Source: a virus
Taxonomy: Duplodnaviria > Heunggongvirae > Uroviricota > Caudoviricetes
Length of the DNA: 7,432 nt
Reading direction: 5' to 3' (one strand)
IMG/VR virus record: IMGVR_UViG_2548876951_000007
The position numbers were made by a program, and so were the translations under genes. The notes beneath the pieces are model-generated. The model was not told where the DNA came from. It did no database searches and saw only the letters and a program-made list of their open reading frames with translations. Shown here one piece after another: positions 2,613 to 6,298 of this stretch (positions are counted from its first letter, which is position 1; the number at the start of each line of letters is the position of its first letter).

Positions 2613-2641
2613 ATTCTACTTAACTCACGTCACCTCGCCAA
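2613..2641 (-). promoter_or_regulatory. candidate sigma70 promoter for the MTase/REase genes
   Basis: On the minus strand: TTGGCG (forward 2636-2641), a 17-nt spacer, then TAGAAT (forward 2613-2618). Consensus match only, no experimental support. Confidence 0.3.
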
Positions 2642-2673: not shown

Positions 2674-3360
2674 TCACTCCTTCTCTTCTTTTCCGTAGTG
2701 GAGTTGGCCAATTTTGATAAGAGGGCGTCCCTGAGATTTGCGGTGTAGATTGGTATCGCGCAGAGAATACACACAGCCACAATATTCCTGCTGATAGAAT
2801 TTTTCGCGCTTGCTGATTTCAATCATACGGGACGAGCCGCCCTGCTTGCGCCAGTTATAATCCCAGTACACCATACCCGGATAATGCGCAACAGCTCGCC
2901 GCCCACACTCGTTAATCTGCTGCATATTTTTCCAGCGTGAAATGCCCAGTGAACTGCTGATCACACTGAAACCATTTTCAGCAGCGTACAACGCTGTCCG
3001 CTCAAAACGCATGTCAAAACACATGGTACAACGGATCCCCCTCTCAGGCTCCCATTCCATTCCTTTGGCACGTTCAAACCAGTTGTCGGTGTCGTAATCA
3101 GCATCGATAAACGGCACGCCGTGTTGTTCAGCAAAGCGAATATTTTCATCCTTACGAATTAAATACTCTTTCTGAGGATGAATGTTCGGGTTGTAGAAAA
3201 AGATGGTGTAGTCGATTCCCGAGGCCTGAAGCGCCTCCATCACTTCACCGGAACATGGAGCACAGCAAGAGTGCAGTAGTAGTTTGTTTGCCCCGTTTGG
3301 GAGCTCCAATTTAGGCCGTTTGAAATCAGCAATAGTCATAAATATTTTTATTGGGGTCAT
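2674..3360 (-). CDS. queH: QueH-like (DUF208) epoxyqueuosine reductase family protein, putative Fe-S enzyme
   Basis: 228-aa ORF with an N-terminal [11 protein letters not shown] motif, a central [10 protein letters not shown] and a C-terminal EYCGCVYS. This Cys pattern matches what I recall of the QueH/DUF208 family. The start is uncertain: neither ATG 3360 nor ATG 3339 has a clear SD. Confidence 0.55.
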
Positions 3361-3513: not shown

Positions 3514-3939
3514 CTAGTAACGTCTAAAATACCTAACATTTCCTTGATAAAATGCCAGTACACGCTGCATAGCTTCGCTCTTCCGGCACTCGCGACAGAT
3601 TATGTTTAGGCGCCTGTCGTAGCGGCGTATTTCGCCGTCTGGTAATAGCCAGATAAGGTCCGGATCAACCACAGATGGTTTCTTCAGCTTTGCCCTTGAG
3701 AGTTTTTTGCGGGCGTTTTGCCAGTCCTTGCGCGCCTGCTCAGACGGGAATACTCCGTAACCGGAATTGTAAACATCACCACTGGCGGCCAGCTCCATGC
3801 ATAAACGACCGACAGACGCATGACTGACACCAATTTCATCCGATAACTGCCGAATCGTGCCTCGTCCGTTAAGGCGTACGAATTCCACGATCAGCCCTTT
3901 AATTTTTTCCCGCTCTTCTTGTGTAAAAACTTTTGCCAC
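3514..3939 (-). CDS. HTH-domain protein, function unknown (sits where a helicase loader is expected)
   Basis: 141-aa ORF starting at GTG 3937-3939, preceded by a strong SD (AGGAGGG, about 4 nt spacer), 38 nt downstream of the upstream replication-gene stop. Predicted HTH around TIRQLSDEIGVSHASVGRL; basic C-terminus. No DnaC/P-like Walker motifs. Confidence 0.5.
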   Translation of the reverse strand: MAKVFTQEEREKIKGLIVEFVRLNGRGTIRQLSDEIGVSHASVGRLCMELAASGDVYNSGYGVFPSEQARKDWQNARKKLSRAKLKKPSVVDPDLIWLLPDGEIRRYDRRLNIICRECRKSEAMQRVLAFYQGNVRYFRRY

Positions 3940-3979
3940 AAGCCCTCCTGAAAATTACCTCATGACCAGAAATTAACAC

Positions 3980-4942
3980 TTACCCCCTGAAGCCCGGCGG
4001 AATTTCAGTGTCCGGTTCAGAAATGTGATTCACGCAACGCTGCGCAGGTGAACGCCCCAGGCGGATAACCAGTTCATCCCATTTTTCCCGGAGTTTTGCC
4101 GGACTCATGATGTTTTTTACCCAGAACGAATCCCGCTGGAGACGCCCAAACATTTCACAAATTTGTCTGTGAGTTCTGCCATCCAGCATCCGCATTGTGC
4201 GAACGTCATTGGCCCATGCTGTCCAGTTGGGTTCTTTCGGTCTAGTGATCTCGCCATCATCGCTGGCCGCCTGCTCGTAAAGACTCACGATTCGTCCCCA
4301 GATCCACTGTGCGCACACCAAATCTTCCTGACTTCCCCACTGGCGTTTTTTCGCACTGAACACAACCGCGTCAGGGTGTCGGGTTAAAAAATCCTGTTCA
4401 GCCATCTGCGGGTCCGGTTGCGAAGCGTCCGGACAAGAAGATCTTTTATCTGACGGATCAGGTTTTAATACTGACGGATCGGGGTCAATCATCGCCCCCC
4501 TAATCGGCAGTTTTTTATCAACAGTTGATCCATCAAAATTTAACGGGTCAACCGTTGAGGGGTCAATATTTGACGGGTCAACTGTTAACGGGTCATTTTT
4601 TGCCGGGCTAATTTTTCTTTTCGGTTTATATGACTCACGCGCCGCCGCCGCAGCTGCTTCGAGTTTTTCCACATTAAGCCGATAGATATTGCTTACATTA
4701 CGCCCACCGACCTTACGCTCTTCCTTCGTCAGCCAGCCCTCTTTCGCCAGTTCTGCAATAGCCGATTTCACTGTGGATTCACTTCTTGCACCGATCTGAC
4801 GCCGGATAGTTTCAATGGCAGGCCATGACACGCCCTCGTCATTGCTGTAGTCTGCAAGACGGGCCATAACCGCCACCCTGGATAAGATCATGCCGGTGAA
4901 GGCGCACCCTTCCCAGACAAGACCATGAAGCTTGCTGCTCAT
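3980..4942 (-). CDS. phage replication initiation protein (O-like / YdaU-position), N-terminal winged-helix domain
   Basis: About 320 aa from ATG 4940-4942 (the track start at 4957 is GTG). The N-terminal segment WPAIETIRRQIGARSESTVKSAIAELAKEGWLTKEER resembles the HTH of phage/plasmid replication initiators. The central low-complexity VDP-repeat linker is encoded by the tandem 15-bp iterons. It lies immediately downstream of the YdaT-like gene, as in Rac. Confidence 0.6.
   Translation of the reverse strand: MSSKLHGLVWEGCAFTGMILSRVAVMARLADYSNDEGVSWPAIETIRRQIGARSESTVKSAIAELAKEGWLTKEERKVGGRNVSNIYRLNVEKLEAAAAAARESYKPKRKISPAKNDPLTVDPSNIDPSTVDPLNFDGSTVDKKLPIRGAMIDPDPSVLKPDPSDKRSSCPDASQPDPQMAEQDFLTRHPDAVVFSAKKRQWGSQEDLVCAQWIWGRIVSLYEQAASDDGEITRPKEPNWTAWANDVRTMRMLDGRTHRQICEMFGRLQRDSFWVKNIMSPAKLREKWDELVIRLGRSPAQRCVNHISEPDTEIPPGFRG
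4541..4615. repeat. five tandem 15-bp iterons (consensus about TRACGGGTCAAnnnT) inside the replication gene; putative origin
   Basis: GGGTCA/GGGCTA cores start at 4545, 4560, 4575, 4590 and 4605, an exact 15-bp period. A degenerate copy lies at 4481-4489. The adjacent 4505-4540 stretch is AT-rich and 4440-4530 holds four GATC sites. Confidence 0.6.
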
Positions 4943-4964
4943 AAAACCCCCGAACACCGTGCTT

Positions 4965-5390
4965 TTAGTGCATCACCACAGCATTCCCTGCCGGGCCGCC
5001 GCGATTCATCTGGTCATACAAAACAACCGCTGACGCAACAAAATCATCGACATCCTTCACCAGCCGATCCCTCCGTTCGACGATCTCACGGTAATATTCA
5101 GAACTGTGGCTGCGCATACGGGCCACCAGCAAAGGCGGCATCGCCTTTTCGATCGCCGGTAACAGAGCCTGCATTTTTTCAACAGCATCAGGGGTGTCTT
5201 TATCCAGCCAACGGAAAATTTTCTGGGTATTACGGGCCAGGGCTTCCGGATGGCTGTCGTCGTACAGTTCAGGGAACGTCATCCCCAGTTCGAAATAAGT
5301 CCGGGCTATTTCAGCTGCAGGAACTTTCTCACCATCAGGGTATGCCCAGGCATTCATCGCCATGCGGATGTGCTCATGTTTGATTTTCAT
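4965..5390 (-). CDS. ydaT: YdaT-like prophage protein
   Basis: 141-aa ORF with ATG at 5388-5390, overlapping the upstream Cro-like gene end by 17 nt (translational coupling). Size and position (third gene after the repressor, second in the cro-side operon) match Rac ydaT. Assigned by synteny and recalled similarity, not by search. Confidence 0.55.
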   Translation of the reverse strand: MKIKHEHIRMAMNAWAYPDGEKVPAAEIARTYFELGMTFPELYDDSHPEALARNTQKIFRWLDKDTPDAVEKMQALLPAIEKAMPPLLVARMRSHSSEYYREIVERRDRLVKDVDDFVASAVVLYDQMNRGGPAGNAVVMH

Positions 5391-5697
5391 GAATCATTTG
5401 CCTCTTGATGCTTCGGGTATGATCGTTTTCGTCATTTGGTTGCTTCATCGACATATTCTGCGAATAACATGACGAGCGTCGTAAGTATGTCCAATCAACA
5501 TCAGGACGAAGTTCTTCACACAGGACACCACCTTTTGTTGCTCGTTCAATCGCAGGACATCTCTCAGCAGGTAACTGACGTACACCTTTGATCCATTGAT
5601 TTACGCTTGGAGGAGATACACCTAAAAGCCTAGCCATTGCTGATTGCCCACCGACAACAGCACAAGCTCGTTTGAATGAATAGTTATCTTTTTTCAT
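5374..5697 (-). CDS. ydaS: Cro-like HTH DNA-binding protein (YdaS-like)
   Basis: 107 aa from ATG 5695-5697 with GGAG 10-13 nt upstream; the track start at 5718 is GTG and lies upstream of the predicted transcription start. HTH segment QSAMARLLGVSPPSVNQWIKGVRQLP. Transcribed divergently from the repressor gene. Confidence 0.65.
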   Translation of the reverse strand: MKKDNYSFKRACAVVGGQSAMARLLGVSPPSVNQWIKGVRQLPAERCPAIERATKGGVLCEELRPDVDWTYLRRSSCYSQNMSMKQPNDENDHTRSIKRQMIHENQT

Positions 5698-5724
5698 CGA
5701 ATGAACTCCAAAAAACACGCAACA

Positions 5725-5792
5725 ATATTAGGTTTAGCCTAATGAAATTGTCAATAGGCTATGCCTAATACATCGAGAGTAGGGATTGCCTA
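5725..5792 (-). promoter_or_regulatory. cro-side (PR-like) promoter with three operator-like dyads
   Basis: On the minus strand: -35 TTGACA (forward 5749-5754), an 18-nt spacer, -10 TAATAT (forward 5725-5730). Three TAGG-N5-CCTA dyads at 5729-5741, 5755-5767 and 5780-5792, with centres 26 and 25 bp apart. Confidence 0.5.
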
Positions 5793-5821: not shown

Positions 5822-6298
5822 ATGCTTAGTGGTAAAGACTTAGGCCGAGCGATAGAGCAGGCCATTAACAAAAAAATTGCATCAGGAGCCGTCAAATCAA
5901 AGGCGGAAATCGCACGTCATTTCAAAGTCCAACCACCATCAATCCATGACTGGATTAAGAAAGGTTCGATAAGTAAAGACAAACTTCCAGAACTATGGCG
6001 TTTCTTTTCTGATGTGGTTGGTCCAGAGCATTGGGGGCTTAACGAATACCCCATACCAACCCCATCCACTTCAGATACAAAAAGTGAACTTTTAGACATA
6101 AACAGCCTTTATCAAGCCGCCTCTGATGAAAAAAGAGCAATTGTGGCTTTCATCTTATCTGGAAATGCTACGGAGCCTAGTTGGGTTGATCATGACGTTC
6201 GCGCCTACATTGCCGCAATGGAAATGAAGGTAGCTAACTATCTGAAAAATCAAGAATCAAAACGGAAAAGCCAGAACATCACCAAGACAGGAACTTAA
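5822..6298 (+). CDS. racR: prophage repressor, RacR-like HTH protein
   Basis: 158-aa ORF with an N-terminal HTH (SKAEIARHFKVQPPSIHDWIKKG), divergent from the Cro-like gene and flanked by operator clusters. Length and synteny match Rac racR. Confidence 0.65.
   Translation: MLSGKDLGRAIEQAINKKIASGAVKSKAEIARHFKVQPPSIHDWIKKGSISKDKLPELWRFFSDVVGPEHWGLNEYPIPTPSTSDTKSELLDINSLYQAASDEKRAIVAFILSGNATEPSWVDHDVRAYIAAMEMKVANYLKNQESKRKSQNITKTGT

Follow-up and report, generated by a model that had tools for sequence, protein, structure and literature searches.

A Ren-family (DUF977) gene closing a modular prophage replication block that commonly lacks a helicase-loader gene

The gene at positions 3514-3939 of the window (the whole 7,432-nucleotide stretch of viral DNA analysed here) encodes a catalogued member of the Ren/DUF977 family, already known from an identical database entry. 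It closes a replication block that is modular, being composed of an initiator gene, an optional cassette in which a helicase-loader gene (DnaC or lambda-P type) is paired with a DUF1627 gene, and then the Ren-like gene. The target gene therefore occupies its usual place, and nothing but the cassette before it is missing. This loader-less block is a common natural variant, and its viability is demonstrated by phage mEp460, which carries a diverged version of the same junction. The product is a Ren-family protein, encoded at the end of a rightward early replication block of the Rac/lambda type, and we consider it probable that it serves as a non-essential accessory or anti-exclusion factor, with helicase loading by host DnaB-DnaC in the short form of the block.

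The window corresponds to the early-right region of an E. coli prophage of the Rac/lambda type; in minus-strand order its features are as follows.

5822..6298, plus strand: RacR-type repressor gene (NCBIfam NF049929 RacR, E 1.2e-73, 246 bits against a cut-off of 200)
5725-5754: pR-like promoter (promoter-like site with 10/12 consensus matches)
5374..5718, minus strand: YdaS/Cro-like gene (Pfam YdaS_toxin and P22_Cro)
4965..5390, minus strand: YdaT/CII-like gene (Pfam YdaT_toxin; PHROG 163 'CII-like transcriptional activator', E 2e-47)
3980..4942, minus strand: O-like replication initiator gene (PHROG 391 'replication initiation O-like', E 2.5e-115; Pfam HTH_36)
4518..4607: iteron-like repeats lying within the initiator gene (four copies in a 15/30-nt register, with a 33-nt imperfect inverted repeat, or palindrome)
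3983..4042, minus strand: last 20 codons of the initiator, encoding the tail QRCVNHISEPDTEIPPGFRG (BLASTP, NCBIfam DnaT)
3940..3979, minus strand: 40-nt spacer with the Shine-Dalgarno sequence AGGAGGG at 3943-3949
3514..3939, minus strand: DUF977/Ren-like target gene (141 aa, GTG start, TAG stop)
2674..3360, minus strand: full-length homologue of QueH, an epoxyqueuosine reductase
2613-2641, minus strand: promoter-like site upstream of the methylase gene
2579-2603: palindrome GCCTGAGGC-AGACA-GCCTCAGGC, between QueH and the methylase gene
1371-2495: C5 cytosine methylase gene, between QueH and the endonuclease gene in minus-strand order
479-1492: NgoMIV-type endonuclease gene (extent from the ORF listing; RefSeq relatives have a shorter 292-aa form)

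The RacR-type repressor gene is divergent from the replication operon. The YdaS/Cro-like gene is the first of this rightward operon, and the YdaT/CII-like gene lies upstream in the same operon as the initiator and DUF977 genes. The initiator has 320 aa from the ATG at 4942, the length annotated for its RefSeq relatives, and its ORF reaches back to a GTG at 4957. The iteron-like repeats encode a repetitive D-P-x-x-V-D peptide and, by analogy with lambda, whose ori iterons lie inside gene O, mark the probable origin. The QueH homologue was placed in the nin-like region of the prophage (PHROG 3217, function unknown), and in many related phages QueH directly follows DUF977 without R-M genes. No Rex-like genes were found in the window.

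The target ORF starts with GTG at 3937-3939, and AGGAGGG stands 3 nt upstream. It is a real gene, because an identical 141-aa product is already deposited at NCBI (P0001, 'DUF977 family protein') and because its dN/dS against the alleles of other phages is 0.06-0.36, values pointing to purifying selection. The first-pass annotation had described a 141-aa HTH protein with a strong Shine-Dalgarno sequence behind the initiator gene, which the ORF and the sequence bear out, and had put the gap at 38 nt; from the initiator stop codon to the target ORF we measured 40 nt. Three parts of the coding sequence recur below.

3688..3921, minus strand, codons 7-84: winged-helix (wHTH) domain and the long helix after it
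3790..3897, minus strand, codons 15-50: diverged allelic cassette comprising the HTH core and recognition helix
3544..3621, minus strand, codons 107-132: family signature Y-D-R-x2-N-x-I-C-x-E-C-R-x-S-x2-M-Q-R-V-L-A-F-Y

The protein is thus composed of an N-terminal winged helix predicted with high confidence, a basic linker of low confidence and a conserved C-terminal helix, and the invariant or nearly invariant columns of a 15-member family alignment fall in codons 107-132. It contains no ATPase motif (neither G-x4-G-K-[ST] nor other Walker motifs), and the AAA+ (PF01695) and lambda-P (PF06992) models gave no match in Pfam and NCBIfam, in agreement with the earlier reading of an HTH protein that lacks ATPase motifs. 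The proposed profile and structure check for loader or primosome homology was likewise negative: Pfam, NCBIfam, PDB sequence and fold searches revealed no likeness to DnaC, lambda P, DnaT, DnaD or DciA, and no sequence or fold similarity to the primosome components DnaT, PriB, PriC and DnaD/DnaB-type proteins. The HTH_3 (Xre-type) model of Pfam did not match the protein, nor did any defence-system model in a PADLOC scan.

Family membership was established at the profile level. Pfam PF06163 (DUF977) matched with an E value of 2.9e-28 (99 bits against a cut-off of 22.1), residues 1-135 corresponding to positions 1-133 of the 134-position model, and PHROG 142, 'Ren-like exclusion protein', matched with an E value of 5.7e-43. 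When a profile of 15 diverse DUF977 members was compared with lambda Ren by hhalign, residues 6-93 of Ren aligned over 88 columns (95% probability, E 3.5e-8). The C-terminal motif NIICRECRKSEAMQRVLAFY is identical to NLVFKECRQSAAMKRVLAVY of lambda Ren at 12/20 positions (BLASTP, E 4e-7). Lambda Ren gave no match to the Pfam DUF977 model at E 0.01, and the likeness between the two proteins is remote. The DUF977 family is narrow, with 97 sequences at E <= 0.001 among 1.84 billion cluster representatives in an exhaustive search; 3914 of 5426 complete E. coli genomes match part of a query consisting of DUF977 plus the junction.

The one paper found to mention DUF977 does so in passing, and we found no experimental test of any member. 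'LygF', a RAST-style annotation of DUF977 in phages mEp460 and Rac-SA53 and in vB_Eco phages, led to unrelated lysozyme papers and Salmonella genome announcements; two of the papers returned attach the name to Salmonella Enteritidis-associated genes and give no hint of a function. K-12 YdaW was considered as a DUF977 homologue and rejected: BLASTP shows no similarity, and YdaW is a truncated DUF1627 protein. The report of YdaW as a blocker of the retron-Sen2 toxin RcaT (bioRxiv 10.1101/2020.06.22.160242) is therefore inapplicable to the target gene.

We classified 80 IMG/VR loci encoding DUF977, 67 of which have enough upstream sequence for the replication block to be read. DUF977 follows the replication genes directly in 67/67 of these informative loci, across about five initiator types and whichever loader type is present. 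A loader is encoded in 41/67, being DnaC-like and accompanied by DUF1627 in 30 and lambda-P-like (PF06992) and accompanied by DUF1627 in 11. In 25/67 loci the initiator abuts DUF977 without any loader, as in the window; the remaining locus, L056, contains a partial DUF1627 with no loader and no tail. The loader-less loci use three initiators, namely the 320-aa type seen in the window, one of 358 aa that is unrelated to it, and a third with 58% identity to it. The spacer is exactly 40 nt in 24/25 of them, and the segment from tail through spacer to start codon keeps about 94% identity whichever of three unrelated or diverged initiators precedes it, that of phage mEp460 included. DUF1627 (the K-12 YdaW family, with two winged helices) occurs in 42/67 loci, with a loader just upstream in 41/42, and is absent from 25/25 loader-less loci; because of this co-occurrence, loader and DUF1627 behave as one optional two-gene cassette (coordinates 6961-8497 in L001; also mapped in IMG/VR loci L006-L085).

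Strain 042 and O104:H4 are among the 60/5426 complete E. coli genomes in which the contiguous initiator-DUF977 junction was also found, and the window junction is therefore not a one-off deletion. These 60 genomes represent diverse lineages with different immunity regions and cargo, and different genes follow the junction among them, those in E. coli 042 and Ecol_316 being unrelated genes. Among complete genomes, the closest relative is strain CEA106S, in which initiator and DUF977 are separated by an additional 1.55 kb, with 97-98% identity to the window on either side. This insert encodes a DnaC-like ATPase of 246 aa (IstB_IS21, E 3.9e-19) and a DUF1627 protein of 256 aa; the lambda-P-like loader of related loci has 221 aa (PF06992, E 5.2e-16). 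Initiators of the window type are 99% identical between loader-less and loader-encoding relatives. The exact window DUF977 protein was found after a 320-aa or an unrelated 356-aa initiator, with no loader, in 8/8 assemblies inspected, whose prophages look complete in the region examined (integrase, excisionase, Q, RusA) and carry three immunity regions. An identical or 99% identical DUF977 protein is also present in modules that encode a DnaC-like or P-like loader. The earlier suggestion that the gene occupies the place of a helicase loader is thus right in that a loader is missing relative to close relatives, but the gene is no stand-in for it, as it also lies downstream of loader-containing modules.

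The spacer itself resembles a composite of intergenic pieces of the long form (7725-7760 and 8495-8505 in L001), with TCATGA as at the start of the loader gene and GAGGTAA(A)TTTTC as before DUF1627. This composition is consistent with precise recombination at ORF boundaries.

In the complete 45.9-kb genome of mEp460 (mEp460_ev081), a gene annotated 'Primosomal protein I' is followed directly by 'LygF' (DUF977), and the two products are 58% and 77% identical to the window's initiator and DUF977 protein, respectively. A tblastn search of this genome with host DnaC, two prophage DnaC-like proteins and lambda P returned nothing, and no Walker A motifs were found beyond those in the terminase and in one 177-aa ORF near 43.1 kb. 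Phage mEp460 completes both lytic and lysogenic cycles (PMC9836094). The question of how the initiator recruits a helicase, raised by the first-pass annotation for this element, is a fair one but is not special to it, since 25/67 viral loci and mEp460 do without a loader.

A candidate answer lies at the end of the initiator. The tail QRCVNHISEPDTEIPPGFRG is identical to residues 160-179 of E. coli K-12 DnaT at 14/20 positions and similar at 18/20 (BLASTP, E 1e-7), and the NCBIfam DnaT match falls at 159-179 of 179. A DnaT-like tail also ends K-12 YdaU (L005, 3421-3477), the 358-aa initiator and the mEp460 initiator, and was located at 32883-32942 in L088 and at about 5898-5957 in L042. Over the 67 loci it is present in 30/30 initiators with a DnaC-like loader, in 25/26 with none and in 0/11 with a P-like loader; behind these counts stand about four independent initiator lineages with the tail and one to two that lack it, and with so few the association is suggestive rather than statistical. 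The tail is absent from lambda O and from initiators paired with P loaders, the latter carrying the DnaT DNA-binding domain PF17948 instead. Host DnaC and the phage DnaC-like protein share 49% identity, and dnaT adjoins dnaC in the host.

This distribution suggests that the tail serves DnaC-type loaders of phage or host as a handle. In the simplest reading, it couples initiators to a DnaC-type loader, and the host loader suffices where a phage copy is lacking. Helicase loading in the short form would then be carried out by host DnaB-DnaC, recruited by the initiator itself via its DnaT-like tail; we infer this DnaT-tail route to host DnaC as the most likely one. DnaT has been proposed to recruit DnaB-DnaC by a mechanism called unknown (PMC13377028), and no role for its C-terminal tail is stated in the DnaT literature searched. 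A DnaT-like tail acting as a DnaC handle would, if true, explain loader-less lambdoid phages and bear on the recruitment of DnaB-DnaC by DnaT.

Two common alleles of DUF977 differ mainly in the cassette of codons 15-50. Between the window gene and the second common allele, dN is 0.54 and dS exceeds 2 (saturated) over this cassette, with dN/dS of about 0.2; over codons 51-141, dN is 0.026 and dS 0.3, and the protein outside the cassette is nearly invariant between the two alleles. The two cassettes are ancient, and no positive selection was found on codons 15-50. A diverged recognition-helix cassette of this kind suggests a specific nucleic-acid or protein target. The cassette type co-varies with none of initiator type (and its iterons), loader presence, downstream gene and nearby DNA, and hence no candidate DNA target site was found. 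The window allele looks recombinant: its residues 1-134 match the allele group found without QueH downstream, and the other group is matched by its last 7 residues (3514-3536) and by the QueH region that follows.

Homology with lambda Ren and position in the operon point to an accessory or anti-exclusion role for the protein. Lambda ren is dispensable for plaque formation (PMC10695390). According to a preprint (bioRxiv 10.1101/2021.04.19.439022), ren is reported to accompany all initiator/loader modules, ren mutants grow poorly on Rex+ lysogens and are suppressed by mutations in O and P, and two-hybrid assays detect interaction of RexA and RexB with Ren and O. By homology, the window protein would serve the replication initiation complex as a non-essential accessory. 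It would contact the initiator complex and the Rex-type exclusion proteins of resident prophages, and it would shield phage replication from abortive-infection sensing or Rex-type exclusion. It probably neither loads the helicase nor controls cargo transcription. The label of replication accessory factor, offered by the first-pass annotation as one option, suits the family, because lambda ren ends the O-P-ren series and both genetic and physical links tie Ren to O, P and Rex.

The same annotation also raised control of the downstream cargo, that is, a sequence-specific regulator of QueH and the NgoMIV-type R-M genes resembling a C protein. A winged helix predicted with high confidence, encoded upstream of the cargo and on the same strand, would suit such a regulator, and both a promoter-like site and the palindrome stand upstream of the methylase gene. 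The company kept by DUF977 argues against it. At least 10 different genes follow DUF977 in the sampled loci, and unrelated ones follow the junction in the 042 and Ecol_316 genomes; among the sampled loci QueH follows in roughly a third of the loci, QueH with both R-M genes in 6/80, and 74/80 lack a complete R-M pair. The palindrome was present only in the 15 fetched loci that carry M and R genes, and this restriction makes it part of the R-M cassette, possibly as operator or terminator. It stands beside both main DUF977 alleles, whose recognition helices differ completely, and one palindrome beside two such helices makes a shared DUF977 target unlikely. A simple promoter and terminator scan of the minus strand between DUF977 and QueH gave nothing. 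As the protein is not of the Xre type (HTH_3) and C-protein size, and as QueH separates its gene from the R-M genes, we regard cargo control as very unlikely, and this part of the earlier proposal does not stand.

Three other explanations concern replication itself. In loader-less modules the DUF977 protein could be a non-ATPase matchmaker that recruits the helicase by bridging the initiator and host DnaB or DnaB-DnaC. Its gene and the initiator gene are all that the replication block contains in the window, in 25/67 loci and in mEp460, the tail-spacer-DUF977 junction is conserved behind different initiators, and lambda P, a non-ATPase helicase matchmaker, provides a precedent. Against this stand the identical or 99% identical protein in modules already encoding a DnaC-like or P-like loader, the non-essentiality of its homologue lambda Ren for plaque formation, the negative searches for likeness to DnaC, lambda P, DnaT, DnaD and DciA (Pfam, NCBIfam, PDB sequence, fold), and allele types that co-vary with neither initiator type nor loader presence. 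Such a role is improbable, and a Ren-family protein that bridges specifically the DnaT-tailed initiator to host DnaB or DnaB-DnaC in the loader-less form is quite improbable; if true, phages would have in Ren/DUF977 a third kind of helicase-recruitment factor, and this would account for its presence in every module type. A decayed remnant, in which loader and DUF1627 were deleted, the prophage cannot replicate and DUF977 has no role, could be read from the clean 1.55-kb gap relative to the nearest complete-genome relative, with exactly two ORFs removed, and from the frameshifted integrase of the E. coli 042 prophage that has the junction. We think this scarcely probable in view of the junction in 60 complete genomes of diverse lineages, immunity regions and cargo, the conserved 40-nt spacer behind three different initiators, the viable phage mEp460, the purifying selection on the gene, and carrier prophages that look complete in the region examined. 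Finally, the protein may be a DNA-binding modulator of replication or of an early/late switch (initiation timing, theta-to-sigma) unrelated to exclusion. A winged helix with a basic linker, strict co-inheritance with replication modules and two ancient recognition-helix alleles suggestive of two target specificities are compatible with this, and Thomason et al. speculate that Ren may act in a replication-mode switch (bioRxiv 10.1101/2021.04.19.439022). The cassette type is, however, independent of initiator, iterons and nearby DNA and thus pointed to no candidate site; a winged helix can also serve protein contacts, and the sole family phenotype known concerns Rex exclusion. We consider a modulator of this kind unlikely, and favour the non-essential accessory or anti-exclusion factor.

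This analysis changes little for the gene itself; its useful outcome is a clean description of the module. Two leads emerge from it, namely the association of the DnaT-like tail with DnaC-type loaders and the function of Ren-family proteins, which are present in most complete E. coli genomes.

Compared with known systems, the window protein shares with the DnaC/IstB-type and lambda-P-type loaders the genomic slot next to the initiator gene and nothing else; it has no AAA+ fold, Walker motifs, PF01695 or PF06992, and in related phages the true loaders are separate genes between initiator and DUF977. With the controller (C) proteins of R-M systems it shares being a small HTH protein encoded on the same strand as an R-M system. 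Unlike theirs, its HTH is a winged helix and not of the Xre type, its gene adjoins neither R nor M, with QueH intervening, and DUF977 does not travel with R-M genes, being conserved in phages without any R-M system. The K-12 Rac module (ydaS-ydaT-ydaU-ydaV-ydaW) has in common with the window a RacR repressor, YdaS/YdaT regulators and an initiator with a DnaT-like tail. It differs in having a DnaC-like loader, YdaV, and a truncated DUF1627 protein, YdaW, and in having lost the DUF977 gene, whereas in the window DUF977 is present and homologues of YdaV and YdaW are absent.

The closest functional comparison is with lambda Ren (gene ren, NP_040633, 96 aa). Like ren, the window gene is the last of a cro-cII-O-P-ren type replication operon, directly after the replication genes of the rightward block. 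The two proteins share an N-terminal winged-helix-like region, the C-terminal motif N-x-[IV]-x-x-E-C-R-x-S-x-x-M-[QK]-R-V-L-A and the same PHROG. The window protein is 45 residues longer, owing to the basic linker and the segment P-D-G-E-I-R-R-Y-D-R, and the phenotype involving Rex is documented for lambda alone. In lambda, 4 nt are shared by P and ren, whereas the window gene has no translational overlap with the upstream replication gene and is preceded by the 40-nt spacer with its own strong Shine-Dalgarno sequence. With respect to Pfam DUF977, the window protein is a full-length member that does not differ from the family.
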